A stretch of DNA of 64,000 nucleotides from the IMG/VR virus record IMGVR_UViG_3300045988_168552, one strand, 5' to 3'. Position 1 is the first letter of the stretch. Each line of letters begins with the position of its first letter. Shown in pieces: positions 3,897 through 46,036 of the stretch. This stretch comes from a virus. The position numbers and the translations under genes are program-made. A model generated the notes under the pieces. That model ran no database searches, was not told where the DNA came from, and saw only the letters and a list, made by a program, of their open reading frames with translations.

Positions 3897-4159
3897 CGTT
3901 AGAGTTATCGATGGAGGAAAAGGTAATCGTAACCGTTCTTTGGGTGTTTACGATATTCTTTATGATGTTTCTTTCCGGAATGTTTGAAGGCAGTCGCGAG
4001 TCAATAAGGGCATCAAATATTCCGCCACCACTACCACCATCGCCCTCTCACTCCCGTTCCCTGCGATTCCATCGCAGACCAAAAATAAAGAGTAATAACA
4101 AAAATAAAAACAAAAAAGATTATGGCAGAAATAACAAAACAACAGAATGTAGAGAATGA
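3893..4159 (+). CDS. questionable ORF (small membrane protein?)
   Basis: N-terminal TM-like helix VIVTVLWVFTIFFMMFLSGMF. The C-terminal half is just the translation of the repeated hairpin plus A-rich leader element, and it overlaps 4122..4427. Confidence 0.25.
   Translation: MTLELSMEEKVIVTVLWVFTIFFMMFLSGMFEGSRESIRASNIPPPLPPSPSHSRSLRFHRRPKIKSNNKNKNKKDYGRNNKTTECRE
4053..4077 (+). repeat. conserved hairpin element, copy 1
   Basis: CCCGTTCCCTGCGATTCCATCGCAG. Perfect 7-bp stem CTGCGAT/ATCGCAG with loop TCC. Followed by an A-rich leader and ATG 4122. Confidence 0.8.
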
Positions 4160-4427
4160 ATCAGAAGAAGAGGAGTGCGGCAAGCAGATTTTTCAGCTCA
4201 ACCTTTCCTACTATGAGATGAAGGACGACAAGTTCACCGTCAAGGTAACTTGCGAGAAGGATGGCAAGGAGTCTGACCTGAAAATCCTCACCGATGATAA
4301 TTCTATCGGTATGGTGTATGAGGGAATGAAAATCGTCCTTGGTACCGTGGCTCGCTTCTACCTGATGAGCCTTTTGGATAAAGGCGCAATCACCCAGGAG
4401 GAGTACGATAAAATGACGGGTAATTAA
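4122..4427 (+). CDS. hypothetical acidic protein
   Basis: 101 aa. Start context AAGATTATGGCAGAAA is shared with 6127. Its first ~15 codons are duplicated at 6127. Confidence 0.6.
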   Translation: MAEITKQQNVENESEEEECGKQIFQLNLSYYEMKDDKFTVKVTCEKDGKESDLKILTDDNSIGMVYEGMKIVLGTVARFYLMSLLDKGAITQEEYDKMTGN

Positions 4428-4444
4428 TCGGAAATGATAGATAT

Positions 4445-4612
4445 ATGAAGCAAGAAGAAAAAAGCTCTATTAAGTCTTCATTACCCTGCAAGTCTCAGGA
4501 GTCAGCAGAGGAGTATGATAGTAATGATGTTCCTCTCATTTCTCCTCCGTTGACTCCAAGAGTATTATTGCTACAAATGATACATGTTTTTATAAAGACA
4601 AAAAAGAAATAG
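4445..4612 (+). CDS. small protein (C-terminus duplicated in 6127..6276)
   Basis: 55 aa, too short for the ORF track. ...EEYDSNDVPLISPPLTPRVLLLQMIHVFIKTKKK. Confidence 0.4.
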   Translation: MKQEEKSSIKSSLPCKSQESAEEYDSNDVPLISPPLTPRVLLLQMIHVFIKTKKK

Positions 4613-4615
4613 CGT

Positions 4616-5164
4616 ATGTTGTACGAAGCAAAGAAAGGAACAAAGACTTATGAATACATAAACAGTATTCTTGAAGCCGAATTTGAAGAGTACAAAGCTT
4701 ATATGAAGCGAGTACACGAAGCCGTAGATTTCGAGTTTCAGAAGTACAAAGGTTATCAGCCGAACGGCAGCTTGTTGCGAGAGCACGAGATAATCGCAAT
4801 CTGGGTACCAGCCGAGCAGTATGATACGATGGATAAGAAGCTATGGCGAAAGGTAGATAGCACCACAATCAAGAACGTTCTCCACGTAGCGGTAATGCCT
4901 AACAAGCGTTACAAGTGGGGCAAAAGAGTGGATGCCATCCTTTCCTCTTACAAACCAGTAACAAATCACTGGAAGTTGTTAAAGGCATTGAATGTAAAAG
5001 AGCCTGCATCCAGCAGTTTCTCCATTACTCAGCTCCTCAGTCATAAAGACCGTATCTTTGCCTTCTTTGACGATAGCATCCGAGCCGAGAAGTGCAATCC
5101 TGATTTCAAGGAAATCACGATAGGAGAGTATGAGGATCTTATAAATAGTGATAAAGAAGGGTAG
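4616..5164 (+). CDS. hypothetical protein, paralog A
   Basis: 182 aa. Collinear with 6280..6822 (MLYEAKKGTKTYEYINSILEAEFEEYKAYMKRV vs MLYEAKQETKAYEYIKGILDAEFKEHQAYMKRV). Confidence 0.7.
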   Translation: MLYEAKKGTKTYEYINSILEAEFEEYKAYMKRVHEAVDFEFQKYKGYQPNGSLLREHEIIAIWVPAEQYDTMDKKLWRKVDSTTIKNVLHVAVMPNKRYKWGKRVDAILSSYKPVTNHWKLLKALNVKEPASSSFSITQLLSHKDRIFAFFDDSIRAEKCNPDFKEITIGEYEDLINSDKEG

Positions 5165-5167
5165 CGT

Positions 5168-5623
5168 ATGAAGATAAATATGAATCAGGTGAAGGAGAAG
5201 ATTGCAGGCTTTATTTTTGACCTTATCATAGAATCGGGCAGTAAGTCTAAGTTCTTCCGTAAGTACACCAACCATCGCTTCCGTAAGCAGTACGAACGAT
5301 TGAAGGATGATTCCTATTTTCATCAGTATAAACGCAACAGCGATTTAGAAAAAGTGAATAGTAAGCTGCATGAAAAGATCAGCGCTTTAAACTACAGACT
5401 TCGCTCTATTTATGATGCGGTGAAAGTCGTAGCCACGGAGTACCCTAAGAACATCCCGTGCCCTCACGGAGAAAAGGATGAAGTAAACGATTGCCCTGTC
5501 AGAACAGATTCCACTGAATGCTGGTGCTGCCCAGGTTTCGTATGTAGAATACCTGAAAAAGGTACCATCATTTGTTGGAATGAGAACTTTGAACAGAGTG
5601 AGGATTTAGAAAAGAAGGAGTAG
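5168..5623 (+). CDS. hypothetical protein with Cys-rich C-terminus
   Basis: 151 aa. CPHGEKDEVNDCPVRTDSTECWCCPGFVC. Confidence 0.6.
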   Translation: MKINMNQVKEKIAGFIFDLIIESGSKSKFFRKYTNHRFRKQYERLKDDSYFHQYKRNSDLEKVNSKLHEKISALNYRLRSIYDAVKVVATEYPKNIPCPHGEKDEVNDCPVRTDSTECWCCPGFVCRIPEKGTIICWNENFEQSEDLEKKE

Positions 5624-5626
5624 AGT

Positions 5627-6040
5627 ATGGAAATAAAAGATTATAAGTTTAAGGCAAAAAGTATTGAAGATTCCAGATACCATCCTGCAAAAGGCTCCTG
5701 GGTTATCGGTTGTTTCTATTATGACAACGAGAATGCTTATATCCGTCATCCTTACAAGGTAGATAAGAACGGCAGACCTACGTCATATATGAGCACAAGA
5801 GTTGATCCTGATACGCTTTGTCAATATACCGGAATGAAGGATAAAAACGGTGTAGAGATATATGAGTACGATTTGTTGTCATGTGAGGATCATACTAAAC
5901 TTCGCTTATTTTGTAACACGTGCCTTCCTTGTCTAGATGATACTGTAGTCTTTTTGCAGTTATCATCTGAATCAAGTGTACAAAATGCTGAGGTGTATGG
6001 TAACATCTTTGATGATCACTACATTAGAGCGCCCCGATAG
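5627..6040 (+). CDS. YopX-family phage protein
   Basis: 137 aa. TLCQYTGMKDKNGVEIYEYDLL and a C-terminal EVYGNIFDD match the YopX signature (qyTGlkDknGkeIyegDi ... GNi.dn). Confidence 0.7.
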   Translation: MEIKDYKFKAKSIEDSRYHPAKGSWVIGCFYYDNENAYIRHPYKVDKNGRPTSYMSTRVDPDTLCQYTGMKDKNGVEIYEYDLLSCEDHTKLRLFCNTCLPCLDDTVVFLQLSSESSVQNAEVYGNIFDDHYIRAPR

Positions 6041-6056
6041 ACGTTGCCCTCTCGCC

Positions 6057-6082
6057 CCCGTTCCCAGCGATTCCATCGCAGG
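6057..6082 (+). repeat. conserved hairpin element, copy 2
   Basis: CCCGTTCCCAGCGATTCCATCGCAGG, stem with one mismatch. Part of the 4.04/6.04 kb segmental duplication. Confidence 0.75.
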
Positions 6083-6126
6083 TCAAAAGTAAAGAGTAAT
6101 AACGAAAATAAAAACAAAAAAAGATT

Positions 6127-6276
6127 ATGGCAGAAAAAACAATGTTACAGAATGTAGAGAATGAATCAGAAGAGGAGTATGATTGTAATGATGTTCCTCT
6201 CATTTCTCCTCCGTTGATTCCAAGAGTATTATTGCTAAAAATGATACATGTTTTTATAAAGACAAAAAAGAAATAG
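6127..6276 (+). CDS. small chimeric protein (N-term of 4122 gene fused to C-term of 4445 gene)
   Basis: 49 aa, too short for the ORF track. MAEKTMLQNVENESEEEYDCNDVPLISPPLIPRVLLLKMIHVFIKTKKK. Confidence 0.4.
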   Translation: MAEKTMLQNVENESEEEYDCNDVPLISPPLIPRVLLLKMIHVFIKTKKK

Positions 6277-6279
6277 CGT

Positions 6280-6822
6280 ATGTTGTACGAAGCAAAACAA
6301 GAAACAAAGGCGTACGAATACATTAAAGGTATTCTCGATGCTGAATTTAAAGAACATCAAGCCTACATGAAACGAGTAGAAGAAGCCGTAGGCTTCGAGT
6401 TTGAAAAATATCAGGGCTATCAGCCTAACAGAACTCTCACAAGAGAGTACGAGATTACTGCTATATGGGTTCTTTCTGAGCGTTACGATACACTAGATAA
6501 GAAGGTGTGGAAGAAGATAGACGGTGTAAAATTGGAGGACGGTTACTATGTAGCTATTGCGCCTAATAAGCGATATAAGCAAGGCAAGGCAATAGCCTCC
6601 GTTCTTCTCTCCTATAAATCAGTTGCTAACCATTTCAAGGTAATGAAGGAACTGAATATAGAAGTCCCTCAAACTAGCCGTTTCTCTATTACTCAGCTCC
6701 TCCGTCATAAAGACCGCATTTTCGTTTACTTTGATGACAGCATCCGAGCCGAGAAAAAAAATCCTGATTTCAAGGAAATCACGATAGGAGAGTATGAGGA
6801 TTTCGTTAATAGCAAAGATTAG
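6280..6822 (+). CDS. hypothetical protein, paralog B
   Basis: 180 aa. Full-length paralog of 4616..5164. Confidence 0.7.
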   Translation: MLYEAKQETKAYEYIKGILDAEFKEHQAYMKRVEEAVGFEFEKYQGYQPNRTLTREYEITAIWVLSERYDTLDKKVWKKIDGVKLEDGYYVAIAPNKRYKQGKAIASVLLSYKSVANHFKVMKELNIEVPQTSRFSITQLLRHKDRIFVYFDDSIRAEKKNPDFKEITIGEYEDFVNSKD

Positions 6823-6827
6823 AGCGT

Positions 6828-7622
6828 ATGGAAACAAATGATTATGTAAGCATCATCAAGAATATGCTAAAGTTTAGTAATATGGTGGAATGCGTTTATC
6901 CCGACCAATACAAGTTTGTCTGTCATCTGCATAATATTCAGGAGCGTGAAGCGATGGATATGTACGGTGATCTACGTAAGATAGCTTCGGGTCAGTATTG
7001 GAGTATCAACGATAAGAAGGACGGGTATCTTTATTCCATGATAAACATGGCGTTGGAAGCTAGTAAGATTCAAGTCTTCAACTCTCTCATCAAAGATACC
7101 GCAGCCATTGGCGAGGATAGAAAGCCAAATATCCTTGCATTCTTTAAAAGAGGCGATGAGCGTTTTCAGCAGGAGTTTAATTTGCAATGGCAGGTTGCAT
7201 ATCTTGATATAGCCGAAATGATAAAGAACGGCTATACGCTAACGGCTACCGCCCGCCAGGTAGATAATGTTGATGCCAAAGATTACGTAGGCGAGAATAA
7301 TAACAAGAAATCATATATTCCTATTTACGATGGCGATGTAATGCTTTGCTATGTAAGAAACCCGAAATGGTGGAGTTCTGATTGCGAGAACAGCGGTCTG
7401 TATCTCTGTAAAGATGGCGTTTACTATCGTCTCATTTATACCCCAGGTAAAGGTTATATCAGACACGGTGAGCCTGATACTGACGAAGCCTTCGAGTTGG
7501 ATATTGAGGAGAATGCCTTCAGCAGCTATGTGATGACTCTCAGTCAGAAGTGGTATAAGCTTGGTAATATCCACGCTGGTATCGGATTCTTAATTGAAAA
7601 ACCAGAAGATAAAGACGAATAG
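6828..7622 (+). CDS. hypothetical protein
   Basis: 264-aa ORF in the tightly packed early operon. No motif recognised. Confidence 0.6.
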   Translation: METNDYVSIIKNMLKFSNMVECVYPDQYKFVCHLHNIQEREAMDMYGDLRKIASGQYWSINDKKDGYLYSMINMALEASKIQVFNSLIKDTAAIGEDRKPNILAFFKRGDERFQQEFNLQWQVAYLDIAEMIKNGYTLTATARQVDNVDAKDYVGENNNKKSYIPIYDGDVMLCYVRNPKWWSSDCENSGLYLCKDGVYYRLIYTPGKGYIRHGEPDTDEAFELDIEENAFSSYVMTLSQKWYKLGNIHAGIGFLIEKPEDKDE

Positions 7623-7625
7623 CGT

Positions 7626-8603
7626 ATGGAAATAGAAACGAAAGAAACTCCCGTAAAGGGAGCATTGATTTATCAGCCGCAGGGTGCGGCTGGTGAATAT
7701 GCCAAATGGGCAATCAATCTATACCATGGTTGCTCTAACGGTTGCACGTATTGTTATAACCGCAGAGGGGTGTTGAGCCATGTCTTCGGTGATAAGCCGG
7801 AACTGGCAGCACCTATCATCAAGCAGCGAGATAAGTTGCTCAATGAATATCTGAAGAAAAACAATATGACTGCACATGATGCTATTAAGAAAGGTGTTGT
7901 AAACCATGAAAGTCTTGTTGCTGCCCGTGATCTTATCTCGAAGGATCTAGAGAAGATAGGAATAGATAAAATACGTCAGGATGGCGGTATCTTTTTCTCT
8001 TTCACCTGCGACCCATTCGATATAGAGGCAGATATGTTTATCCTGCAGCAGGTGGTTTTACATTTGCTATTTGATCGTATTCCAGTCACGATATTAACAA
8101 AAAACGTGCATTGGATGCAGACGGGTTTGTGGAAGAGTACACTTCGAGACCTTACAACAGATTATAAGGATATAGCTCGCTACCTCACCATCGGTTTTAC
8201 TATTACCGGTAAAGATAAGCTGGAGCCTGGCGCTCCTTCTACCGAGGAACGTATCGAAGCTTTGCGTGAACTGCACGACAAATACGTGGTTAAGAACTTT
8301 GTGTCTTTAGAGCCAATAACGAGTATTCATACCGCATCGGAAGTAATCAAGAAAACATATCAGATTACGGACGAGATACGTATTGGTGTCCAGTCGCCTA
8401 TCAAGAAGGACAGATATGATCCGAACGAGTTTACTGGTTTCGTTATCGCGGTTAAAACCCTGGCACGCGGTCTTGATTGCCGTTTCATGGTAAAGGATAG
8501 TATGTATAAGCTGGCTGAAACTTTTGAAGGTGCTTATAGAGATTTGTGTGTTACAAAACTTGATGAGATAAGAGAAATTTATGCAACAAAAAGTAAAGAA
8601 TAA
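7626..8603 (+). CDS. radical SAM protein (SplB / DNA-repair-photolyase-like, COG1533-like)
   Basis: 325 aa. YHGCSNGCTYCY carries the CxxxCxxC 4Fe-4S/SAM motif close to the N-terminus, as in the SplB-like radical SAM group. Confidence 0.75.
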   Translation: MEIETKETPVKGALIYQPQGAAGEYAKWAINLYHGCSNGCTYCYNRRGVLSHVFGDKPELAAPIIKQRDKLLNEYLKKNNMTAHDAIKKGVVNHESLVAARDLISKDLEKIGIDKIRQDGGIFFSFTCDPFDIEADMFILQQVVLHLLFDRIPVTILTKNVHWMQTGLWKSTLRDLTTDYKDIARYLTIGFTITGKDKLEPGAPSTEERIEALRELHDKYVVKNFVSLEPITSIHTASEVIKKTYQITDEIRIGVQSPIKKDRYDPNEFTGFVIAVKTLARGLDCRFMVKDSMYKLAETFEGAYRDLCVTKLDEIREIYATKSKE

Positions 8604-8607
8604 AATT

Positions 8608-9297
8608 ATGAAAAGTAAATTGAAGTATTACGCCCAGGTTATCGCTGTTAACCTGTTGGCATTTTTGGTACCCGTTTTAGCCGTTGCCCTTATCTATGTT
8701 CTCGGCAAGTTGAAGAACATCTGTTCCCATCCTTGCATTCTGTCGCAGGAGATATACGATTGCTGCCTGGAGGCAACCATCGTGGTATTGGCTGGTTTCT
8801 CCGTAGGTTTTTGGCTTCTCTCCTGGGCTGATAGCTGGAGAAAGACAAAGCTTATGGCTTTAAAGTTAAGGCATCGATGTAAACGTGAAGAAGAAAAAAT
8901 AGCCTCTAAAATTTTTTTTGCTATGGGTGTAGATCCTGCAAAAGGTAGAGTAGAGCCTAAAGTGGATATGGCAGAGCAGAAGAATACGCCTGCGCTTGGC
9001 GATTCCGAGTTTGAGGATATTTCCGGATTGACGGTTAAAGAGATTTATCATCTCTATCACGGTCGTCAAGTTCTGATTACGGCTGGTAAGGCGAAGGGAA
9101 ATTTTCTCGGCCGTCTTGCTGGCTATGACAATGAAGGTTCTATTCTTTACATAGGTTTCACTCAATACTGCCTGGGTTCTTACTCCCTGGATGAAATAAA
9201 CGCTATGCGTGATACAAATCCAGAGGTTAGCTATGTAGAACCAGGATATAAAGGTTACGATTGCTATATCCCTAGTCTCATCCGTATTCATAAGTAA
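8608..9297 (+). CDS. membrane protein
   Basis: Start taken at the second in-frame ATG, just after the upstream stop (the track ORF starts at 8581). Hydrophobic helices at the N-terminus (VIAVNLLAFLVPVLAVALIYVL; ATIVVLAGFSVGFWLLSW). Confidence 0.6.
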   Translation: MKSKLKYYAQVIAVNLLAFLVPVLAVALIYVLGKLKNICSHPCILSQEIYDCCLEATIVVLAGFSVGFWLLSWADSWRKTKLMALKLRHRCKREEEKIASKIFFAMGVDPAKGRVEPKVDMAEQKNTPALGDSEFEDISGLTVKEIYHLYHGRQVLITAGKAKGNFLGRLAGYDNEGSILYIGFTQYCLGSYSLDEINAMRDTNPEVSYVEPGYKGYDCYIPSLIRIHK

Positions 9298-9315
9298 TGG
9301 TATAAAGCTTAGATT

Positions 9316-9579: not shown

Positions 9580-9581
9580 TT

Positions 9582-19962: not shown

Positions 19963-20517
19963 ATGCCTATCAGAACCCAACCTATTAAGTCGCCTTTTGC
20001 ACCCCTGAAAGAGGTGGCAGGTGTATATCTGAAACAAGCCCTTCTTGATATAGAAGTCAACTTCAATACCCAGAAGATTTATCCGGTAGAAGTATATCGC
20101 GGCTATGAGAAGGTGAACAAATACCGCGAGGAACACGGCATGTGGTATTCTACGGGTGAAGGTAAGAAATCCTTTGAGGGTACGGTATATCAGGCTGATG
20201 AAAAGACGGGTAATCTGATGGTAGGAATCCGTTATAACGATTATCTCCGATATGTGGATATTGGTGTAGGTTTGACGGGTGATCCTCGTGACCCTGCAGC
20301 CCATATCACTGCCGATAAGGTGGACCGCTCAAAGAAAGCCAAGTTTAAAACCCGCTACATCGGCAAGTGGGATAGAAGGGCAGGTAAATCTCACCGCCCT
20401 GCCATCATGCGAACCGTCCGCAGACTGAAAACAAGATACGAAAATCATCTTGCCGATTACTATGGCTACCAAGGCTTGTTGCAGATAATGAACGCCCTGG
20501 AAGGCAAAGACGAGTAA
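19963..20517 (+). CDS. hypothetical protein
   Basis: 184-aa ORF immediately upstream of the tape measure. Confidence 0.6.
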   Translation: MPIRTQPIKSPFAPLKEVAGVYLKQALLDIEVNFNTQKIYPVEVYRGYEKVNKYREEHGMWYSTGEGKKSFEGTVYQADEKTGNLMVGIRYNDYLRYVDIGVGLTGDPRDPAAHITADKVDRSKKAKFKTRYIGKWDRRAGKSHRPAIMRTVRRLKTRYENHLADYYGYQGLLQIMNALEGKDE

Positions 20518-20528
20518 CCCATCTCGCC

Positions 20529-20548
20529 CCCGTTCCTGGCGATTCCAT
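20529..20548 (+). repeat. conserved hairpin element, copy 3 (degenerate, 3' arm lost)
   Basis: CCCGTTCCTGGCGATTCCAT followed by an A-rich leader and ATG 20590. Confidence 0.6.
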
Positions 20549-20589
20549 TCTCATATCCTCAAAAAATAAACATTAAAAAATAAAAAGCA

Positions 20590-27414: not shown

Positions 27415-27506
27415 AAGCTTTTGCCCTTACAGGGCGCATTGCTGATTGCCATTATACCCAGGGCGATGCCCTGGGCTAGGAGCTTCTGCCCCTTCAGGGC
27501 GTGTGG
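27415..27506 (+). repeat. GC-rich REP-like triple-hairpin element, copy A
   Basis: GCCCTtacAGGGC, CCCAGGGcgatgCCCTGGG and GCCCCttcAGGGC. The reverse complement recurs at 56441..56532. Confidence 0.85.
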
Positions 27507-30734: not shown

Positions 30735-30823
30735 TCGCCGTTAAGGGAGATTATGATTAATAGAGCCTCTTATGCCTCTTTTTTATGACGGTTTCCAAAA
30801 TTGCAACTGTCATAAATGGAGCC

Positions 30824-30849
30824 TCCGTTCCCAGCGATTCCGTCGCTGG
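30824..30849 (+). repeat. conserved hairpin element, copy 4
   Basis: TCCGTTCCCAGCGATTCCGTCGCTGG followed by an A-rich leader and ATG 30886. Confidence 0.8.
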
Positions 30850-30885
30850 TTCGTACAGAAAAAAGTAAAAAAGCAATAAAAAGCA

Positions 30886-35161: not shown

Positions 35162-36466
35162 ATGGCAAATCTTCCTAAAGATTTTATCGGCACCACTGCC
35201 CTTGAGCACGTAGCCGAGCAGGTGAGCAAGGAAATCCTGATGGGTCCAGGCTACACCGATGCAGAGGAAATGGATCGCCTCGGCATTCAGGTTATCAGCG
35301 GTATGCAGTTTAAGCGTACCTTCAACATCTTCCTCCGTAAGGGTGGTACTACCCGCCGTAAGGATGTTCACGCTAAAGTGAGCAGCCAGGCAGGATTCCT
35401 CAAGGAACGTACTTTGACAGTGAAGCTTACTTGGGACCACTTTGACGATAACATCGATAACTACTGCGAGACACCTTTCGGTACAGACGCACAAGGTCAG
35501 TACCCTCTCTCTACCCAGGCTACAGAGGCTATCCTGAAGGATTACGCCGACAACCTTACAGCTTGCTTGTGGTTCGGTGATATTGACCTCGATAACGGCG
35601 ATGAGACCGTTCCTGCAAAGGATCAGGCTCTTGCATTGTATGATGGTTATCATACCTGCGTAAAGCACGACATCGAGGATGCCCTTATCTCTGAGGCTAA
35701 CGGCAACCTTATCCAGTGTGATGCCATCGAGGAGCCTGCCGACAACAACGACTCTACTCCATTCGATAACTTCGTCGACTGGTACTTCAAGTGGGATGCA
35801 CGTCTGCGCAAGCAGAAGGTAATGGTCTATATGGACGAATCTACTGCCCGCAACATTGCAGCCGGTTACGCTAACAAGTATCACGGCAACTTCAAGGTAG
35901 AACCAGAGGCAGGTGACAACTTCAAGTTGCCAGGTTACTCTAAGGTAACCATCTGTCCTGTATCAGACTTCGGTACTGGCGGCCGTATGTATGCTACCGT
36001 AGAGGGTAACTTCGTTTACGGTGTTGATACAGAGAACAATAAGACTTTCGTCAGCGTTCGTGTAGGCTCTGACACCGATCACAGAACTATCTCTTTCCAG
36101 ATTCAAAGTATTCAGGGTGCAGGTATCAAGGTGCCATTCTCTAGCAGCCTGTGCGTCAGCCCAGGTAAGCTTGAGAACCCAGGTTACAAGGCAGGTGATT
36201 ACATCGACTCTAACCTCACCGTCACCCTCGCAAAGAACAGCACTGCTGATGCTGGTGAGATTGATGGTAGCGTGAAGGTTAACGGTAAGCCTTACACCGA
36301 CCCTGTTGACACCAACGCCAACGACGTGCTGACTCTTGAGGCAGTAGATGGCGAAACTAACTTCGCCTTCGATCACTGGAGCAACGACAGCAAGGAGAAG
36401 AAGATTCAGGTAATCGCCAGCGGCACAAGCATGGCTTACACCGCCTTTTTCAAGAAGAAGGGTTAA
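35162..36466 (+). CDS. major capsid protein candidate with C-terminal repeat-type domain
   Basis: 434 aa, immediately after the protease-scaffold gene. The C-terminal ~90 aa (VKVNGKPYTD...FAFDHWSNDSKEKKIQVIASG) look like an InlB B-repeat/Flg_new-type module. By position and size only. Confidence 0.6.
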   Translation: MANLPKDFIGTTALEHVAEQVSKEILMGPGYTDAEEMDRLGIQVISGMQFKRTFNIFLRKGGTTRRKDVHAKVSSQAGFLKERTLTVKLTWDHFDDNIDNYCETPFGTDAQGQYPLSTQATEAILKDYADNLTACLWFGDIDLDNGDETVPAKDQALALYDGYHTCVKHDIEDALISEANGNLIQCDAIEEPADNNDSTPFDNFVDWYFKWDARLRKQKVMVYMDESTARNIAAGYANKYHGNFKVEPEAGDNFKLPGYSKVTICPVSDFGTGGRMYATVEGNFVYGVDTENNKTFVSVRVGSDTDHRTISFQIQSIQGAGIKVPFSSSLCVSPGKLENPGYKAGDYIDSNLTVTLAKNSTADAGEIDGSVKVNGKPYTDPVDTNANDVLTLEAVDGETNFAFDHWSNDSKEKKIQVIASGTSMAYTAFFKKKG

Positions 36467-36480
36467 CCCCCTCTCCTGCC

Positions 36481-36506
36481 CCCGTTCCCAGCGATTCCAT
36501 CGCTGG
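36481..36506 (+). repeat. conserved hairpin element, copy 5 (consensus)
   Basis: CCCGTTCCCAGCGATTCCATCGCTGG. Perfect 8-bp stem with loop TCC. Confidence 0.85.
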
Positions 36507-36615
36507 TCCAACAGGCAAAAAGGCAGTCCTCTATAAATCCTCGGCGGCGGTCGCCTGACCTGGCGGAATATGGCTTCCGTCGCCATTTCGTTAAATCATC
36601 AAAAAAGATACAATT

Positions 36616-37557: not shown

Positions 37558-38463
37558 ATGGAGCTAAGACATTTACGTTCGTTTGTGTATGTTGCAGAGA
37601 CGCTTTCTTTCAGCATCGCCGCCTCCCGATGCTTTGTCACCCAATCCGCCATCAGTCAGCACATCAAGGCTCTGGAGGATGAACTGGGATGCAAGCTGCT
37701 GATACGCACATCGCACAGCATCATGCTCACCGAGAACGGGGAGGCACTTCTGCCACGTGCCAAGGAAATACTGAAGTTGGCGGAAGACTGCAAGGAGCAT
37801 ATCAATGCACTCAACAATTGCATGACCGGAGAACTGCGCATCGGTGTAGGTTCCTTTATCGCACCCTATATTCGTGTGGCTGCACTTATATTCATGGAGC
37901 GATACCCTAACGTAAGGGTGAATGCCGAATTTACCAAGGCAACGAGCCTGAACCGCCTGTTGCGAGACCACATGCTGGATCTCGCTTTTACGATGAACGA
38001 AGCCTATACCAACGAGGGCATCGAGAGCCATCCCTGCATCCCATTCAGTATTTGTGCCATCATGCGAAACACACACCCTCTTGCCAGGAAAGATAAGGTA
38101 ACATACGATGACCTGCTGAAGCATGGCATCATCATGCCCGATGTAGGCGAACGTGTTTTCAACACTTTTCAGCAATATTTGCAGAACGATCTCACCAAAT
38201 TAAGCGTAAAGTGTATTCTCAGCGACCCCGACGAAGACCTTGCCATCATAGAAGATACTCACCTGGTTACTTTTATGCCGAAGCTGTATCTGAAGAACCA
38301 CCCTACCCTTATAGCTCGCCCTATCCTGGGCATAGGAGAAGAACTGATGAGTAATGCCCACTGGATGAAGGATGTACCTATGAAACGTTCGTCACAACTC
38401 TTCCTCGACATTATCAGGGACGAAGCCATCCCGTATATCAAGGCTTTGGAAGAAACCATGTAG
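37558..38463 (+). CDS. LysR-family transcriptional regulator
   Basis: 301 aa. N-terminal HTH MELRHLRSFVYVAETLSFSIAASRCFVTQSAISQHIKALEDELGCKLLIRTSHSIMLTENG is textbook LTTR, followed by a substrate-binding-domain-sized C-terminus. Confidence 0.9.
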   Translation: MELRHLRSFVYVAETLSFSIAASRCFVTQSAISQHIKALEDELGCKLLIRTSHSIMLTENGEALLPRAKEILKLAEDCKEHINALNNCMTGELRIGVGSFIAPYIRVAALIFMERYPNVRVNAEFTKATSLNRLLRDHMLDLAFTMNEAYTNEGIESHPCIPFSICAIMRNTHPLARKDKVTYDDLLKHGIIMPDVGERVFNTFQQYLQNDLTKLSVKCILSDPDEDLAIIEDTHLVTFMPKLYLKNHPTLIARPILGIGEELMSNAHWMKDVPMKRSSQLFLDIIRDEAIPYIKALEETM

Positions 38464-40737: not shown

Positions 40738-40762
40738 TCCCCATCATCTTTTTAGCATTTGC

Positions 40763-40770
40763 TATCTTTG
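40763..40770 (+). promoter_or_regulatory. putative -7 box (TAnnTTTG)
   Basis: TATCTTTG about 34 nt upstream of ATG 40804. Confidence 0.45.
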
Positions 40771-40803
40771 CCATCAGAATAAAAACGATAAAACAGAAAA
40801 GAT

Positions 40804-41358
40804 ATGGCAAAGATTCAACCTCTTGCAGATTTCATCCTCTCCTTCGAGGGAGGTTACGTCAACCACCCCAACGACAAGGGCGGTCCTACCAACATGGGTG
40901 TAACCCTCAAAACCTGGCAGACCCAAGGCTACGACAAGAACGGTGATGGTCGCATAGACGCAAAGGACGTGAAGCTCATTACAAAAGCCGATGCTATCTC
41001 CATCCTTCGCCGTTGCTACTGGAACCGATGGAAAGCCGATGCTATCAAAGACCAGAGCATCGCCAACATCCTGGTAGATTGGGTATGGCTTAGTGGTACC
41101 CCAGGCATCACCCTCGTACAGGCAATGCTGGGAGTAACCGCCGATGGTATCGTAGGCAACAGAACCCTCAAGGCGCTCAACGACCAGAACCCTAAGAAGT
41201 TTTTCGAGCGCATTAAGGCACGCCGCAAGCAGTATATCGCACGCGTCTTCGCCAAGCGTCCTAGCCAGAAAGAATTTGAGGCAGGCTGGCTCCGTCGCCT
41301 CAATGCCATCAGTTACGGCAGTCTCATCACCAATGGTGGAATGGAAATAAGTTTTTAA
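40804..41358 (+). CDS. endolysin, GH108 lysozyme + PG_binding_3 domain
   Basis: 184 aa. ILSFEGGYVNHPNDKGGPTNMGVT is the GH108 signature. The C-terminal LVQAMLGVTADGIVGNRTLKALN is a peptidoglycan-binding repeat. Confidence 0.9.
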   Translation: MAKIQPLADFILSFEGGYVNHPNDKGGPTNMGVTLKTWQTQGYDKNGDGRIDAKDVKLITKADAISILRRCYWNRWKADAIKDQSIANILVDWVWLSGTPGITLVQAMLGVTADGIVGNRTLKALNDQNPKKFFERIKARRKQYIARVFAKRPSQKEFEAGWLRRLNAISYGSLITNGGMEISF

Positions 41359-41379
41359 CAATAAATAGATAAAAGATTT

Positions 41380-41991
41380 ATGGCAAGTTACAATGGAAAC
41401 ATCGACCTTTTGGCTCTGAATGGAGCCAAGGTCTTAGTAGGTATCGATGAGAAGAATGCGCAGCGTCCTTACGTCTGCATTCCTATCGATGTGAACGAAA
41501 TTCGAGTAGATACATCAAAGAATGATGCAAGTAAAACTCAGGCAAAACTGAGAGTTAACATCTGGCCTTTCAATGAGGCGTACAAGAATAAGATTCGCCA
41601 GAGTGCAGCCGAGCGTGGCGATACCCAGGTGAGTGTACCAACCCACGAAATGCAGCTCTCGTTCTCCACCGAGTACGTCAAGGCAGTAGCCAAGGCATTC
41701 CCGAAACTCGTAGAGCAAGTAAAGGAAGCCAACAAGGATCGAGACCCCGACATCGTAAATCAGGATTTCAACGATGAGAACTCTCACCTCTTCAAGGCAA
41801 TCCGCACCCGCATGAATAAGCGCATCGCCAGTCTCTATCAGCCACAGCCTACCGCCCAGCAGCAGACGTACCCACAGCAAGCCTACGGAGCCGCTGGCAA
41901 CGCTACCGCCTATGTGCTGCCAGCAGATGGAGGCAATGATTACTCTTCAATGCCAGGTTACGATGATCCTAACAGCGACCTGCCATTCTAG
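41380..41991 (+). CDS. SSB-like protein (acidic C-terminal D-L-P-F tip)
   Basis: 203 aa. Globular N-domain, Gln/Pro-rich linker (QPQPTAQQQTYPQQ), C-terminal YDDPNSDLPF resembling the DDDIPF tip of bacterial/phage SSBs. Confidence 0.5.
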   Translation: MASYNGNIDLLALNGAKVLVGIDEKNAQRPYVCIPIDVNEIRVDTSKNDASKTQAKLRVNIWPFNEAYKNKIRQSAAERGDTQVSVPTHEMQLSFSTEYVKAVAKAFPKLVEQVKEANKDRDPDIVNQDFNDENSHLFKAIRTRMNKRIASLYQPQPTAQQQTYPQQAYGAAGNATAYVLPADGGNDYSSMPGYDDPNSDLPF

Positions 41992-41994
41992 CCA

Positions 41995-42019
41995 CTGTTC
42001 CCAGTGATTCTATCGCTGG
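41995..42019 (+). repeat. conserved hairpin element, copy 6
   Basis: CTGTTCCCAGTGATTCTATCGCTGG. A C-to-T change in the 5' arm keeps pairing only as G-U on the plus-strand RNA. Confidence 0.8.
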
Positions 42020-42041
42020 TCTTCTCTTAATATATAAGAAT

Positions 42042-43148
42042 ATGCAAGAACAGATAAACCTTACCATCCCCCGCGGCTGGAATCAATGCACCCCTTCCCA
42101 GCTAGAGCAGATTGCCCTCATCATGCTGGAGCAGATAGAGAAATCCAAGGCAGACCGCTATCACCCCTTCGATATGCAGAAGGTGAAGGTAGCCGTCTTC
42201 TTCCTCTTTGCCGGGATAAGCATCAATGCCTATCCCGACCCTCGTCTGCCTATCAATGAGCAGCACTACCTGGTAAGCATAGAGCCGCAGAAGAAGAGCC
42301 TCCTGAAGAAGCTCCTCACCATCTGTACCCCCATTCCCAGCGATTCTATCGCTGGTACCCAATCGGCTATCCACTTCCCCCTCTATCTCTGGCAGCTCAA
42401 CTATTGGCTCTCTCCGAAAGCCAAGACCGATGATAAGACCTCCCCTGAGTACATCGCTCAGGGCGCAGGTCTTCTCGATTGGCTGGATGCAGATAGTGGC
42501 AATTTCCTCACCCGCTTCCCCTATCCATCAATCCGTCAGAAATCCAAGTGGTATCGTCGTGCAAAAGCTTTCCGCGGTCCTAACATCGATCTCGATGGTT
42601 TCTCCTGGCAGCAGTACCGTTTTGCCAGCGACATGATGCAGACCTACACCAAGTTAAGCAATAACCTGGTAAAGATGAAGAAGATGGATAAATTCACCGA
42701 GGAACAACTCCAGACGCAAGCCCAGAGTGTAGCCAGCGCCAGAAACATGTTCCTTGCCACCATCTTCAACACCACCACCCAATATATCGACCCGACAACA
42801 GGTATCACAAAATATGATTTTCACTACGAGTCGAAGCAGTTCACCGAGAACGCAGGTTATTTCGTCAATTATCCGGAAGCCAACTGGCAGGTCATCCTCT
42901 TCTGGTGGAGCGGCATCATGCACACCCTAGCCCGTCGCTACCCTCACGTATTCAAGGTGCAGAAGGTAAACAACAGCAAGCCGCAAACCCCGATGGAAAT
43001 CTACACCGCCACCACCGCCACGATGCAGAAGTATGCCGGCTTAACGGAAGATCAGGTCAACACCCAATCCTACTCCCTCGTTCTTGAACATCTCGAAAGG
43101 TTGTCGAAAGAGAATGAGGAAGTGGAAAAAATGAGGAGAGGAAAATGA
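42042..43148 (+). CDS. hypothetical protein (contains hairpin element copy 7 in frame)
   Basis: 368-aa ORF. Its stop overlaps (ATGA) the first TRD-like mini-ORF. Confidence 0.6.
   Translation: MQEQINLTIPRGWNQCTPSQLEQIALIMLEQIEKSKADRYHPFDMQKVKVAVFFLFAGISINAYPDPRLPINEQHYLVSIEPQKKSLLKKLLTICTPIPSDSIAGTQSAIHFPLYLWQLNYWLSPKAKTDDKTSPEYIAQGAGLLDWLDADSGNFLTRFPYPSIRQKSKWYRRAKAFRGPNIDLDGFSWQQYRFASDMMQTYTKLSNNLVKMKKMDKFTEEQLQTQAQSVASARNMFLATIFNTTTQYIDPTTGITKYDFHYESKQFTENAGYFVNYPEANWQVILFWWSGIMHTLARRYPHVFKVQKVNNSKPQTPMEIYTATTATMQKYAGLTEDQVNTQSYSLVLEHLERLSKENEEVEKMRRGK
42330..42355 (+). repeat. conserved hairpin element, copy 7 (inside CDS)
   Basis: CCCATTCCCAGCGATTCTATCGCTGG, translated as PIPSDSIAG. 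Confidence 0.8.
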
Positions 43149-43276
43149 TAGACGTAAAGGTATCTGTACATCCTTTGAGTCATAAACAGAAATGGAAGAA
43201 ATGGGCGGGGCTTTCTCCTGCACTCAGAGCCACCGATTACAAATGCCCACACTGCATAAGGATAGAGTATGAATAA
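43145..43276 (+). CDS. stand-alone C5-MTase TRD-like mini-protein 1
   Basis: 43 aa, too short for the ORF track. LSPALRATDYKCPH resembles the sPTLtA.dYKgp TRD segment. Ends IEYE-TAA in a TATGAATAA junction. Confidence 0.5.
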   Translation: MIDVKVSVHPLSHKQKWKKWAGLSPALRATDYKCPHCIRIEYE

Positions 43277-43400
43277 CCATCGTTTTTACCAATATCCACG
43301 AGGCGAGAATAAGGGCGGTATTCTAAATACGGATCTCTGCCCTACCATTACCATCAATGCGTGGGAGCAGAACGTTTTTCTGATAAAGAAATATGAGTAA
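43269..43400 (+). CDS. stand-alone C5-MTase TRD-like mini-protein 2
   Basis: 43 aa. PRGENKGG...CPTITINAWEQN. The ATG lies inside the upstream TATGAATAA. Ends KKYE-TAA. Confidence 0.5.
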   Translation: MNNHRFYQYPRGENKGGILNTDLCPTITINAWEQNVFLIKKYE

Positions 43401-43719
43401 TAACAACCAACCTCAATACAAGCGAGGAACGATTATCAAGAACGGAAAGAGATATGGCTTTTATCCCGATGGTTCTCTCTATCGGATATACTCCACCTCT
43501 GACCGTCCGTTTCTTGAAATCGTGGATATAGAAGGTAAAACCTTCCTGCGCATCCGTCAGGCGACAGAGCAAGGCTATACCGATTGCCCTGCACCCGGTG
43601 CAGCCGATTTGAATTACCCTACCTCCGCATTAAGACGTAGCCGCACGGTAGGGGGTGGTAAATTAGTAAATGCACTCACGGCTGCCAGTAGCAATCCGTT
43701 TGTGTTTGTAGAATTATAA
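43393..43719 (+). CDS. stand-alone C5-MTase TRD-like protein 3
   Basis: 108 aa. IRQATEQGYTDC...YPTSALRRSRTVGGGKLVNALTA resembles the aTk.GY...p.S.tRRGRVg...TLt TRD type. Confidence 0.6.
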   Translation: MSNNNQPQYKRGTIIKNGKRYGFYPDGSLYRIYSTSDRPFLEIVDIEGKTFLRIRQATEQGYTDCPAPGAADLNYPTSALRRSRTVGGGKLVNALTAASSNPFVFVEL

Positions 43720-43748
43720 ACAAAAAAAGATTTATAGAGCAAAACAAA

Positions 43749-45050
43749 ATGATAACGAAATTCAATTTCAAGGATAAGACCATTAAGTCTTATGCCATCC
43801 GAAAGCTGACACCCTTCGAGTGTTTCCGACTCATGGGTGTGCGAGATGATGTGATCCGCACGATGCAGAGTACCAATGCCGAGGCAGCCGAGCGAGTAGC
43901 TGGCTATAAGAGCAAGGGAAAGGCAGAAGATATGGCAGTATCAGCCAGCCAGCAATACAAGCAGGCAGGCAACTCCATCGTGGTAGATGTACTTGCAGCC
44001 ATCTATCAGCAACTCTGGTACCCGAAAGAACCGAAGCGTGAGGCACAGACTTCTTTCTTTGCCGATTTCTTCCCAGAAGACCAACTTCCACCCTATCCGG
44101 TAGATAAGAACCACGGTGAAAAACTTATTCTCACCACCTTCTCCGGTTATGACTCGCAGCTCATGGCAGCCGATGTCCTCGCCCAGCAGCATCCTGATTT
44201 CCGTTGGACATGTGTAGGCTGGAGCGATATAGACAAATACGCCTGTCAGATGCACGACCTTATCTTTCCGCAGTTTGCTGACAAAGCCTTGGGCGATATA
44301 ACCAAAATCGACTGGCAGCAAGTAAAGAATAATGTGGGGGGCCAAGAAATCGACCTTTTCACCTATTCCTCACCTTGCCAGGATATATCGCAAGCCGGCA
44401 AGCAGATGGGTTTGAAGGAAGGCTCCGATACCCGTTCGGCATTATTGTGGCGAGTAGCCGATGCCGTGGAGGTATTGCGTCCGAAGTATCTGCTTCAGGA
44501 GAATGTGGCAGCCCTGGTAAGCGAGAAGTTTATGCCCGATTTTCAGAAGTGGCGTGATAAGCTCTCGTCTCTCGGCTACGTAAGCCGATGGGCAAGGCTC
44601 AATGCCAAAGACTATGGTGTTCCGCAGAACCGTGACCGTGTTTTCTGCCTCTCAATGAGAAAAGATGTAGCCTTCGATTACCAGTTTCCCGACCCTATTC
44701 CGCTGAAGAGAAAGTTGGAAGATGTGTTGCAGGAGGAAGTAGATACAAGGTTTTTCCTGAAAGATGAAGTCGTCAGCAAGTTCCTTCAGGCAAACGATAA
44801 AGACACCTGCGTCTTCCATCAGTTCGAGATAGATCCGAGTCATGAGAATGCGATGGCATTAAAAGCCATCCTCACCCTTTATATAGAAGAGGCGCATCTT
44901 TGGTATTACACTCCAAAAGAACTGCAGGAGAAGATTTCTTCCGCTCACGAAGACATCATCATGCCGCTGTTCAATGACTGGAAAGAGAACGGCAAGTTCG
45001 CAAATCCTAAGTTGGAAAATATGTATCATCAGTTTTTGAAGAAGAAATGA
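43749..45050 (+). CDS. DNA (cytosine-5) methyltransferase core, circularly permuted (motifs IX-X before I-VIII)
   Basis: 433 aa. N-terminus carries IRKLTPFECFRLMGV (IX) and QQYKQAGNSIVVDVL (X). These are followed by TFSGYDSQ (I), DLFTYSSPCQDISQAG (IV, catalytic PCQ), LLQENV (VI) and YGVPQNRDRVFCLS (VIII). Confidence 0.9.
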   Translation: MITKFNFKDKTIKSYAIRKLTPFECFRLMGVRDDVIRTMQSTNAEAAERVAGYKSKGKAEDMAVSASQQYKQAGNSIVVDVLAAIYQQLWYPKEPKREAQTSFFADFFPEDQLPPYPVDKNHGEKLILTTFSGYDSQLMAADVLAQQHPDFRWTCVGWSDIDKYACQMHDLIFPQFADKALGDITKIDWQQVKNNVGGQEIDLFTYSSPCQDISQAGKQMGLKEGSDTRSALLWRVADAVEVLRPKYLLQENVAALVSEKFMPDFQKWRDKLSSLGYVSRWARLNAKDYGVPQNRDRVFCLSMRKDVAFDYQFPDPIPLKRKLEDVLQEEVDTRFFLKDEVVSKFLQANDKDTCVFHQFEIDPSHENAMALKAILTLYIEEAHLWYYTPKELQEKISSAHEDIIMPLFNDWKENGKFANPKLENMYHQFLKKK

Positions 45051-45196
45051 TTTGTAATCGTTCTATCATCCTTGGCTTGTATAGCCCTTCCCAAAACGGC
45101 ATTGTCGTGCATCCGAAAGGCATTGCCATTTGCCTTACTGGTGGTGGCAAAGGGCACGATGTTGATAAACCGAAAATATTATTAGAGTATGAATAA
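45047..45196 (+). CDS. stand-alone C5-MTase TRD-like mini-protein 4
   Basis: 49 aa. QNGIVVHPKGIAICLTGGGKG parallels the M.HhaI-type QGeRIYs.rGIaiTLsayGGG. ATGA overlap upstream. Ends LEYE-TAA. Confidence 0.55.
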   Translation: MICNRSIILGLYSPSQNGIVVHPKGIAICLTGGGKGHDVDKPKILLEYE

Positions 45197-45341
45197 GGTT
45201 ATTCCTTTCGTAAAACGATTTAAGGAGTTATGCCCACGATTAGAAGGCTACTCCACCGCTCTATCATCGAGATATGATGGATGGGGTGGGCTGTACGACA
45301 ACCACGGGCAACATACAATGTTATTATTAAGATATGACTGA
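45189..45341 (+). CDS. TRD-array mini-protein 5
   Basis: 50 aa. Weakest TRD likeness. The ATG lies inside the TATGAATAA junction. Ends LLRYD-TGA, overlapping the next ATG. Confidence 0.4.
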   Translation: MNKVIPFVKRFKELCPRLEGYSTALSSRYDGWGGLYDNHGQHTMLLLRYD

Positions 45342-45504
45342 AAAGCATTATATCGGATGGTCCCGAGACCATAAAGGCAAGGTTCGCAATCGTCCACGCA
45401 AGGATATAGCGAATGCAGTAACCCAATTCAATAGCGGCGATAGCTATACCAATCAAGACGTTTTGGGTGATACGTCGCCTTATGTAATATATGAATATGA
45501 TTAA
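45334..45504 (+). CDS. stand-alone C5-MTase TRD-like mini-protein 6
   Basis: 56 aa. GWSRDHKGKV...DIANAVTQFNSGDSYTNQDV. Ends VIYEYD-TAA. Confidence 0.5.
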   Translation: MTEKHYIGWSRDHKGKVRNRPRKDIANAVTQFNSGDSYTNQDVLGDTSPYVIYEYD

Positions 45505-45673
45505 GATATTAGCCATTCACGAGGCGAGAACAGAGCACGCCAAGGAAGTACGCAAGCAGACCGGCACCAATGATTATCGGGATAAAGCCATCTTCTTCCG
45601 CGATAATCATTTGATGCAGTGCATTGGCACCTTCCATACGAAAGATAATCTTCTTGCCTTTAGTTATGAATAA
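45491..45673 (+). CDS. stand-alone C5-MTase TRD-like mini-protein 7
   Basis: 60 aa. RTEHAKEVRKQTG...CIGTFHTKDNLL. Ends FSYE-TAA. Confidence 0.55.
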   Translation: MNMIKILAIHEARTEHAKEVRKQTGTNDYRDKAIFFRDNHLMQCIGTFHTKDNLLAFSYE

Positions 45674-45676
45674 AAT

Positions 45677-45859
45677 ATGATTCAGCAAGCCATCATTACT
45701 CACTATCGAACTGAGGAAGCGAAGGCTTATCGCAAGATACACGGCGACAGAGGCGGTTGTCGTTATCAGGATAAGTATCATCGCCCAAGCCCTTACCCCT
45801 GGAGTAACTGCATTTCCACCGTAACAAAAGATAATCTTTTATGGCAACAATACGAATAA
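45677..45859 (+). CDS. stand-alone C5-MTase TRD-like mini-protein 8
   Basis: 60 aa. RTEEAKAYRKIHGD...SNCISTVTKDNLL. Paralog of mini-protein 7. Ends QQYE-TAA. Confidence 0.55.
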   Translation: MIQQAIITHYRTEEAKAYRKIHGDRGGCRYQDKYHRPSPYPWSNCISTVTKDNLLWQQYE

Positions 45860-45999
45860 GAACCTGCGCAAGCAGAGGCAGAGCCGATGGAGATTGGTAT
45901 TCCAACCCTCACTCTGAAAGGCTCGAAATCGGAGACTGCATCAGTAACGCTATTTCCTCTATCGCCAAGGATTTTATGATCATTATCAATTATGAATAA
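45841..45999 (+). CDS. stand-alone C5-MTase TRD-like mini-protein 9
   Basis: 52 aa. ASRGRADGD...ERLEIGDCISNAISSIAKDFMII resembles RGR...QrLE.r.dg.sNtlTsv.KDnlv. Ends INYE-TAA in TATGAATAA. Confidence 0.55.
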   Translation: MATIRIRTCASRGRADGDWYSNPHSERLEIGDCISNAISSIAKDFMIIINYE

Positions 46000-46011
46000 G
46001 AAGAGGAGCAT

Positions 46012-46036
46012 CTGTTCCCAGCGATTCTATCGCTGG
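46012..46036 (+). repeat. conserved hairpin element, copy 8
   Basis: CTGTTCCCAGCGATTCTATCGCTGG, in the leader upstream of ATG 46176. Confidence 0.85.

Follow-up and report, generated by a model that had tools for sequence, protein, structure and literature searches.

The 64,000 nucleotide (nt) stretch of viral DNA held as IMG/VR record IMGVR_UViG_3300045988_168552 (hereafter the window, meaning this whole stretch) carries a short hairpin-forming element in multiple copies on its plus strand. We propose, with a probability of roughly 60%, that this element is a member of a family of small palindromes repeated at scattered sites in the Segatella copri complex, a mosaic module resembling the repetitive extragenic palindromes and bacterial interspersed mosaic elements (REP/BIME) or MITEs (miniature inverted-repeat transposable elements), which has been acquired and kept by the phages of this host. 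It is very probable that the element is a palindromic repeat of host origin, dispersed and optional, whose stem is maintained and whose polarity is linked to transcription. An earlier note, made from the sequence alone, had presented the element as a strand-specific hairpin in the leaders of late and duplicated phage genes, which might act in RNA or, alternatively, as a dyad-symmetric site for a phage late regulator.

Searches of the window for the hairpin core (CCAGCGAT-NNN-ATCGCTGG; at most two mismatches) returned seven matches, all on the plus strand, against 0.02 expected from shuffled sequence, and a 25-nt motif (at most three mismatches) likewise gave seven matches against an expectation of 0.00. 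A covariance model built from the copies identified ten plus-strand matches in the window at E <= 1e-4 and no significant match on the minus strand. The three scans bear out the eight plus-strand copies, including a half-site, that had been reported, add two which had been overlooked (1282 and 46793), and move several start positions by 1 nt (corrected to 4054, 6058, 20530, 30825, 36482 and 42331). The unit had been described as GTTCC followed by an 8-bp stem with a 3-nt loop, which holds for the core, but the conserved unit is ~45 nt long and the stem of the copy at 4054 has 7 bp. In it a C-rich lead (CCCCTCTCGCCCCC) and GTTCC precede an 8-bp stem closed by a TCY loop, and TCCC follows. An exact-core scan of viral contigs gave more than 117 stretches, and among the matches listed, 146 distinct exact-core viral copies show conservation running well past the hairpin on both sides. 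Upstream, GTTCC and the GCCnCC lead are 87-100% conserved, with GCCnCC preceded by CCCTCTC (pattern ..CC.T..cGCCnCC), and downstream T-C-C is conserved, with no symmetric counterpart of the lead on the 3′ side of the stem. Because conservation extends into the C-rich lead and GTTCC at one end and T-C-C at the other, the unit is both ~45 nt long and asymmetric.

The element is equally a feature of host chromosomes. A scan of 185,579 species, each represented by one genome, with the exact pattern TTCCCAGCGATTCNATCGCTGG gave at least 120 matching stretches, nearly all of them in Segatella (Prevotella) copri or unnamed Prevotella. Matches in a few metagenome-assembled genomes (MAGs) labelled as other phyla evidently reflect mis-binning, and a match in a Planctomycete was discarded as a chance palindrome. 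Host matches lie on both chromosomal strands at widely separated positions; the complete chromosome of S. copri strain HDD04 harbors ten copies in seven 8-kb blocks spread over 0.33-3.86 Mb, and one host site is the trpD-trpC spacer, inside the operon. As S. copri chromosomes carry this same element at many scattered positions, it is not specific to phages, and its occurrence there and in a second phage group is at odds with both a signal for late or duplicated genes and a dyad site for a late regulator. The superficial likeness of GTTCC, hairpin and tail to type I CRISPR repeats raises the further idea of a solitary repeat that serves as an RNA anti-CRISPR decoy by mimicking the repeat of a host array. 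This is scarcely credible, as the exact-match host stretches listed contain no regularly spaced arrays, and the copies are solitary or head-to-head at gene boundaries.

In its usual chromosomal context the element belongs to a mosaic in the order stop codon, (GGTAAAAR)n, AGAGCC, TTAAC, CCCTTTGCGCCCCC, GTTCC, hairpin and TCCCC. The TCCCC is followed by an A-rich leader with the next ATG ~40 nt on, by a canonical bidirectional terminator or, at one widely conserved locus, by a canonical TTTG/TAACTTTG promoter. The mosaic partners are (GGTAAAAR)n, GGTTCTTTGCTCCT and AAGTTCAA repeats. Several arrangements depart from the simple unit, including head-to-head pairs 59-88 nt apart (five loci, among them L209), fully palindromic variants (three loci) and loop-flipped copies in which CCAGCGAT-GGA-ATCGCTGG stands behind the GTTCC lead. 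Together these forms show that the palindrome recombines.

The (GGTAAAAR)n arrays begin at or just past the stop codons of many S. copri genes (for example at 6960-7010 of locus L129), range from 0 to ~14 units at the same site between strains, and supply TAA in all three frames as well as an A-rich region ahead of the next gene. Arrays of TGTTGAATG adjoin some copies of the element at four host loci (aacattcaacaTTGAAAAAGCC-TCCGTTCC), and in related phages these arrays and inverted copies of them fill intergenic slots.

Such pairs, fully palindromic variants and loop-flipped copies would also agree with a REP-type hairpin mobilised as single-stranded DNA by a tyrosine HUH transposase (a REP-associated tyrosine transposase, RAYT, or an IS200-IS605-like enzyme), with the uniform strand of the phage copies reflecting insertion into the lagging-strand template. 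The conserved 5′ flank next to an imperfect palindrome, an architecture known from the GTAG-plus-hairpin REP, agrees with this, as does the preference of the element strand for G.T over A.C mismatches; if replication is co-directional with the genes, the plus strand would moreover be the lagging-strand template. However, the fetched loci yielded no Y1 transposase, and an 8-9 bp direct repeat that possibly flanks the trp insertion would not fit HUH transposition. The ten HDD04 copies show no replichore bias (~4 consistent, five not and one at the terminus, with the origin assumed at position 1), yet they follow the upstream gene, which constitutes small-sample evidence against a purely replication-driven orientation. 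Mobilisation of this type is accordingly considered improbable.

The polarity of the element is tied to the genes around it. Among the matches listed, 84 viral loci have more than one copy, and in 83 of these all copies lie on one strand, which extends the strand specificity claimed for the window to other phages, and in simple open reading frame (ORF) calls the downstream gene is co-oriented in 135 cases and not in 9. The genome-collection sites listed were de-replicated to 45 independent sites, some of which are phage contigs binned into MAGs. At these, the upstream gene is co-oriented at 35/37 sites, with the fully classified intergenic sites comprising 26 tandem, six convergent, two anti-oriented and no divergent arrangements, and in the chromosomal (GTAAAA)n context co-orientation with the upstream gene is complete (18/18). 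The element usually sits at a gene boundary, directly past a stop codon and ~25-140 nt ahead of the next start, and at 15 of 27 de-replicated sites listed the next start lies within 33-55 nt. The earlier note had stated that a generic host repeat in random orientation would speak against a regulatory element; a generic host repeat is indeed what was found, but the orientation is not random.

The presence of the element at a given site is optional. The trpD-trpC spacer was compared in 80 metagenome contigs, retrieved via their TrpC proteins (91-99% identical), and exists in several allelic forms. The spacer is empty and 27 nt long in some contigs (L381, L435 and L455), holds a (GGTAAAAR)n array without a hairpin in others (L434, L442, L445 and L448), and in the majority allele carries the array together with a forward hairpin. 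A further allele is a different composite with a reversed hairpin of stem CCTGCGAT (L403, L437 and others), and a species of 92% identity has a diverged reverse member, AATCCGAT-GGA-ATCGGATT, in which four base pairs are replaced and the loop and a GTTG lead are kept. A comparable picture emerges in the phages. At the homologues of ORF 35162 in 59 relatives, the stop codon is followed at once by the element in most of them and by ~20 unrelated nt in ~15 lineages, and all keep the same downstream leader, CTCTATAAATCC...GGCGGCGG...CCGCCGCC, whether or not the element is present. Before ORF 42042, where the window carries a 47-nt insertion, relative L341 is empty (ttcTAG-aatATG), relative L306 has a host-like (GGTAAAAR)n array with hairpin, and other relatives hold other small repeats.

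Two copies in the window lie within coding sequence. The copy at 42331 lies inside ORF 42042-43148 and not in a leader, within a segment of 22-26 amino acids (KKSLLKKLLSLCAPVPSDSIAGPQSAS) that is absent from homologues of ~60% identity. The copy at 46793 falls in a low-complexity linker that is deleted in one relative (L506) and different in more distant homologues. Both are in-frame insertions in variable protein loops. As the element comes and goes at orthologous sites, comparison of these sites indicates that no particular downstream gene depends on it. The empty orthologous sites of close relatives, which retain the same leader, and the two copies inside ORFs likewise disagree with a signal dedicated to late and duplicated genes.

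The leader before ORF 36616 (window 36525-36615, ~95 nt) is itself conserved in most of the relatives, the most distant of which keep only diverged versions. Its CTCTATAAATCC motif resembles the T4 late-promoter sequence TATAAATA, and GGCGGCGG...CCGCCGCC forms a hairpin. A second small hairpin family, CTAG-CCCAGGGC-NNN-GCCCTGGG-TATA, is found in the window at 27457-27475 and 56472-56490 and is common to viral and host loci, where ~27 distinct copies were counted across the DNA that was fetched. This hairpin takes the slot of the studied element before ORF 42042 in some relatives.

The phages that carry the element are not of a single lineage. Megablast comparison with the 50,697 deposited phage genomes of INPHARED revealed no relatives of the window. 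About half of the listed viral stretches lack tblastx similarity to the window, some of them being other parts of the same ~100-kb genomes. A separate group of phage contigs, 56-63 kb in size, has no tblastx match to the window and does not figure among the relatives found with three window proteins. Its members carry one copy each, co-oriented with the genes and directly past a stop codon, and sequence comparison thus points to at least one further phage group, unrelated to the window, that contains the element. Within this group the copy forms the junction of four upstream and three downstream gene modules, 8/12 combinations of which were seen. Such a distribution raises the possibility that the main role of the element in phages is that of a short conserved linker at gene boundaries, where homologous recombination shuffles modules and generates duplications. 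In line with this, a cassette containing the element is repeated at 3424, 4042 and 6046 in the window beside duplicated genes, and relatives hold different small repeats in the same intergenic slot. Shuffling of this kind would, however, be a consequence rather than a selected function, and it leaves the chromosomal copies, the copies inside ORFs and the maintained stem unexplained. As the principal explanation it is therefore considered rather improbable.

The stem is maintained by compensatory change. Variants were sought by the non-stem positions only, so that the stem letters could not steer their selection, and nearly all candidates obtained in this way have seven or eight paired stem positions. 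Across 46 distinct variants, 87% of cells are paired compared with 74% in shuffles, all eight base pairs change on both sides, and none of 500 shuffles reaches the observed covariation, while pairing falls to 20-43% in slid registers. The covariation which the earlier note had asked for is thus present. Compensatory variants that still pair include CCAGCGTT/AACGCTGG, CAAGCGAT/ATCGCTTG, CGAGCGAT/ATCGCTCG and CATGGCTT/AAGCCATG, with CCGGCGAT/ATCGCCGG, CCAGCGAA/TTCGCTGG and CAGGCGAT/ATCGCCTG added by the non-stem search. The computed folding energy of the hairpin is -11.9 kcal/mol as RNA and -8.4 kcal/mol as single-stranded DNA. Since the pairing and the two-sided changes exceed those of shuffled alignments, the stem is a selected structure, and more than a repeated sequence. 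A G.U pair in one copy had been cited as a hint that the structure acts in RNA. Single stem mismatches on the element strand do favor G.U over A.C across the family (36:13), but 16 of the G.U pairs derive from a single orthologous ORF copy and the ratio falls to 20:13 without this lineage, so that the wobble evidence is weak.

Evidence on transcription was drawn from the differential RNA sequencing (dRNA-seq) map of transcription start sites (TSSs) of S. copri HDD04 (Table S1A of bioRxiv 10.1101/2024.04.05.588293), the coordinates of which are ~2 nt off the RefSeq record of the strain. No TSS is found at seven of the nine checkable chromosomal copies, including none within ~100 nt of those at 335018, 1131013, 1943609, 2169436 and 2737282/2737372, which contradicts the notion that the element might mark transcription starts. 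The copy at 1824385 has a TSS 62 nt downstream, at a canonical -33/-7 promoter. Near the copy at ~1831006-1831055 (L209; variant CAAGCGAT), a 'primary TSS' with a 7-nt untranslated region lies ~18 nt past the hairpin; because no -7 box precedes it, this 5′ end may be a processed end and not a start. Intrinsic termination was likewise ruled out, in agreement with the earlier note, as no T-run follows the stem; in the window, as in the 146 listed viral copies, TCC(C) or an A-rich stretch comes next. Canonical terminators with A-tract, hairpin and T-tract stand separately, beside some host copies. Matches to the canonical Bacteroidota promoter (TTTG...TAnnTTTR) beside the window copies are no more frequent than by chance, and no RNA polymerase or sigma domain was detected in ~40 window proteins by PHROGs and Pfam scans. 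At gathering thresholds the window has no Rfam match, the host composite gives only chance-level matches at E values up to 10, and no tRNA was found in the window.

These data leave little room for the view that a phage late regulator or phage RNA polymerase uses the element as its operator, promoter or antitermination site. Multiple copies on one strand upstream of structural genes would suit such a site, and an 8-bp stem with a 3-nt loop resembles in shape the N4 early promoters, which are themselves hairpins. Against this stand the copies in host housekeeping operons and inside ORFs, the empty orthologous sites of close relatives, the lack of an RNA polymerase domain among the window proteins scanned, and the host copies that mostly have no TSS nearby. 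The proposal is largely refuted and we regard it as very improbable.

A different signal, read by the host, deserves more weight. A host RNA-binding or processing protein could recognise the hairpin, the UCY loop and the GUUCC flank, with phages copying the signal for processing, stability or control of re-initiation. The loop is TCC or TCT in 97% of perfect CCAGCGAT stems, and a TCC loop and GTT lead persist where half of the stem is replaced (AATCCGAT/ATCGGATT, with lead GTTG). Orientation tracks transcription in both host and phages, the spacing to the start codon is tight, the 5′ end past the hairpin at 1831006 lacks a -7 box, and the element is nearly identical across diverged phages. Conversely, the element is dispensable at each orthologous site examined, copies also stand within ORFs, ahead of promoters and in the reverse orientation, loop and lead would be conserved equally well by a transposase or recombinase, and no candidate protein is known. 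We judge a host signal of this kind to be unlikely. A slightly less probable, more specific form of the idea is that in S. copri, which is without Shine-Dalgarno-based initiation, a host protein reads the hairpin to process, stabilise or re-initiate translation on polycistronic mRNAs, and that unrelated phages have captured this signal independently.

Under the preferred interpretation, that of a host palindromic repeat acquired by phages, the element would be transcribed within mRNAs and fold there as a stable hairpin flanked by unstructured C-rich RNA, with only the sense orientation being tolerated or useful. A tentative role, which we hold to be possible but on balance doubtful, is that of an RNA barrier. 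Positioned at 3′ ends and between cistrons, the hairpin could block 3′ exonucleases and so stabilise the upstream message, might define processing sites, and could keep the next gene's initiation region, which is A-rich and has no Shine-Dalgarno sequence, free of pairing. In the antisense orientation, G-rich, GGAGG-containing RNA would come to lie at this region. Spread and exchange of the element presumably follow a transposition or recombination route and, as the sole conserved sequence between diverged modules, it may also serve as a crossover point.

The individual copies in the window, all on the plus strand, illustrate these properties. The distances reported to the start codons at 4122, 6127, 20590, 30886, 36616, 42042 and 46176 are correct. 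The consensus copy (36470..36514; 54.7 bits) lies directly past the stop of ORF 35162-36466, and a full copy (30813..30857; 50.8 bits), with its hairpin at 30831-49 and one U.G pair, lies 37 nt ahead of ATG 30886. The copy at 41983..42027 (48.8 bits), also with a U.G pair in the stem, is positioned 4 nt past the stop of ORF 41380-41991 and 22 nt ahead of ATG 42042. A half-site (20518..20562; 43.6 bits) retains the lead, GTTCC, 5′ arm and loop and has lost the 3′ arm; it abuts the stop of ORF 19963-20517 and precedes ATG 20590 of the tape-measure gene, which was identified by a PHROG match. The copy at 46000..46044 (44.5 bits) adjoins the start of the leftward ORF 45793-46011, 139 nt ahead of ATG 46176, and the sequence TAACTTTA, which resembles a -7 box, follows ~43 nt downstream of it. 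Of the copies inside genes, that at 42319..42363 (48.8 bits) is translated as PIPSDSIAG within ORF 42042-43148, and that at 46779..46823 (hairpin copy 46791-46815; stem CCTGCGGT/ATCGCAGG; loop TCA; 27.8 bits) is translated as SPFPAVQSQV within ORF 46176-47993. A degenerate copy without the GTTCC lead (1264..1308; 37.9 bits) has its hairpin (1282-1300; CCAGCGAT TCC ATCGTTGG, one G.T pair) in the last codons of ORF 756-1304. Following the stop of ORF 46176-47993, a plus-strand (AAAAGTAA)4 array (47992..48023) corresponds to the (GGTAAAAR)n array that bears the element in the chromosomal spacers of S. copri.

The remaining copies belong to a 76-nt cassette consisting of the element, an A-rich leader and GATTATGGCA, which occurs three times (3424-3499, 4042-4117 and 6046-6121). 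The element of the second cassette (4042..4086; 47.2 bits) lies 44 nt ahead of ATG 4122. Its C-rich lead reads CCCTCTCACTCC, GTTCC is present, and the stem of 7 bp, CCTGCGAT/ATCGCAG, shows a compensatory A:T to T:A change. The duplicate of this cassette element (6046..6090; 53.8 bits) begins 6 nt past the stop of ORF 5627-6040 and ends 45 nt short of ATG 6127. The first cassette is a decayed remnant with its A-rich leader (3424..3499, the element part being 3424-3456), with 61% identity and a covariance score of 11.8 bits, which alone is not significant; it precedes ATG 3495. Adjacent gene segments are duplicated (4499-5078 and 6163-6742; 68-86% identity), and the three cassettes beside duplicated genes suggest tandem duplication by crossover at the repeat.

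Elsewhere in the window, a single ORF (56582-64000) encodes more than 2,472 amino acids and continues beyond the end of the sequence. Repeats of 159 nt recur within it at 60673, 61681 and 63214, and no Pfam domain exceeds the cut-off. This giant ORF accounts for the apparent scarcity of ORFs here in the original ORF list, and stop-codon recoding between 56.5 and 64 kb was ruled out on the same ground. Three further genes encode a beta-ketoacyl synthase (53910-55118; E values of 1e-24 and 3e-19 for the two KS domains), a LysR-family regulator (7626-8603) and a protein with a weak, sub-threshold radical-SAM-like match (37558-38463), which are unusual cargo for a tailed phage.

Several observations weigh against the interpretation of the element as a mobile host repeat with a role in mRNA. 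A phmmer search with YafM RAYT and IS608 TnpA queries, covering 15,649 ORFs from the stretches of ~8 kb fetched around the copies, identified no transposase, and membership in a REP-RAYT system cannot be claimed without a transposase. In a comparison of filled and empty sites, terminal inverted repeats are not clearly seen, as the two ends of the insert (GAGCCTTAAC... and ...CTCCCAAT) are not complementary. Target-site duplication is ambiguous, given that the flanking direct repeat AAGGTAAAA falls within a tandem array and that the repetition at the phage site is limited to 'AG'. A reverse allele in the trp operon is an exception to the orientation rule, and some copies stand upstream of a promoter and not within a transcript (host copy 1824385 and perhaps window 46012). 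Once lineages are de-replicated, the G.U excess is too weak to prove a role in RNA. Finally, copies are near-identical across phages whose neighbouring protein is only ~68% identical, which could reflect a stronger functional constraint than a selfish repeat needs.

The repeat family appears to be undescribed so far. Literature searches for repeats, MITEs or REP of S. copri yielded general precedents only, no searchable paper printing the sequence, and the S. copri transcriptome study does not mention repeats or palindromes. The findings show that a conspicuous hairpin which recurs on one strand of a phage genome is not necessarily a regulatory signal of the phage. The element further links an otherwise unannotatable phage family, and at least one unrelated family, to the S. 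copri complex, whose namesake is a keystone gut bacterium, and it marks module-exchange junctions in the phages of this host. The trpD-trpC alleles (empty, array only, forward and reverse) represent a natural series for measuring the effect of the hairpin on mRNA fate.

Among known systems, several share single features with the element. The N4-type hairpin promoter (5-7 bp stem and 3-nt loop) has a similar shape, but a phage RNA polymerase was not found in the scanned proteins and TSSs are lacking at 7/9 host copies. The stoperators and start-associated sequences of mycobacteriophages are likewise short, multi-copy, one-strand motifs near phage gene starts, but these are phage-specific sites for a repressor or the translation machinery, form no palindromic hairpins and do not occur in the host chromosome. 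The promoter early stem-loop (PeSL) repeats of T4-type phages and the linkers of lambdoid phages resemble the element as short stem-loops at gene boundaries that mark the junctions of exchanged modules; they are phage-specific and contain a promoter, whereas the present element is host-chromosomal and not a promoter. Rickettsia palindromic elements (RPEs), which are roughly 100-150 bp in size, are also palindromic repeats found in frame in coding genes, in tolerant surface or linker segments. Most copies of the present element, by contrast, are intergenic, and it is much shorter and common to phages.

Host MITEs common to phages, including Prevotella phages, have been described (bioRxiv 10.1101/2024.01.18.576219). 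Like these, the Correia elements of Neisseria and other MITEs, the present element is there at an orthologous intergenic site in some genomes and missing in others, is found in host and phages alike, and can serve as a phage-host marker. It differs in being a single hairpin of ~45 nt without clear terminal inverted repeats or a clear target-site duplication, so that of the hallmarks of a MITE the polymorphism is found and the terminal repeats and target duplication are not clearly seen. The REP/BIME (REPINs) of Enterobacteria and Pseudomonas, which are mobilised by RAYT, offer a closer parallel. They too are short imperfect palindromes with an asymmetric 5′ flank in many dispersed copies, extragenic at the 3′ ends of genes or between the genes of operons, with head-to-head pairs, mosaics with other short motifs and compensatory stem changes. 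Unlike these, the present element is oriented with the upstream gene, is common to several phage lineages and occurs in frame within ORFs; its host belongs to the Bacteroidota, its sequence is unrelated (the flank differs from the E. coli GTAG) and no RAYT was found among the ORFs of the fetched loci. Overall, by virtue of a short palindrome with a polar flank, a location 3′ of genes, and its pairs and mosaics, the element behaves most like REP/BIME.

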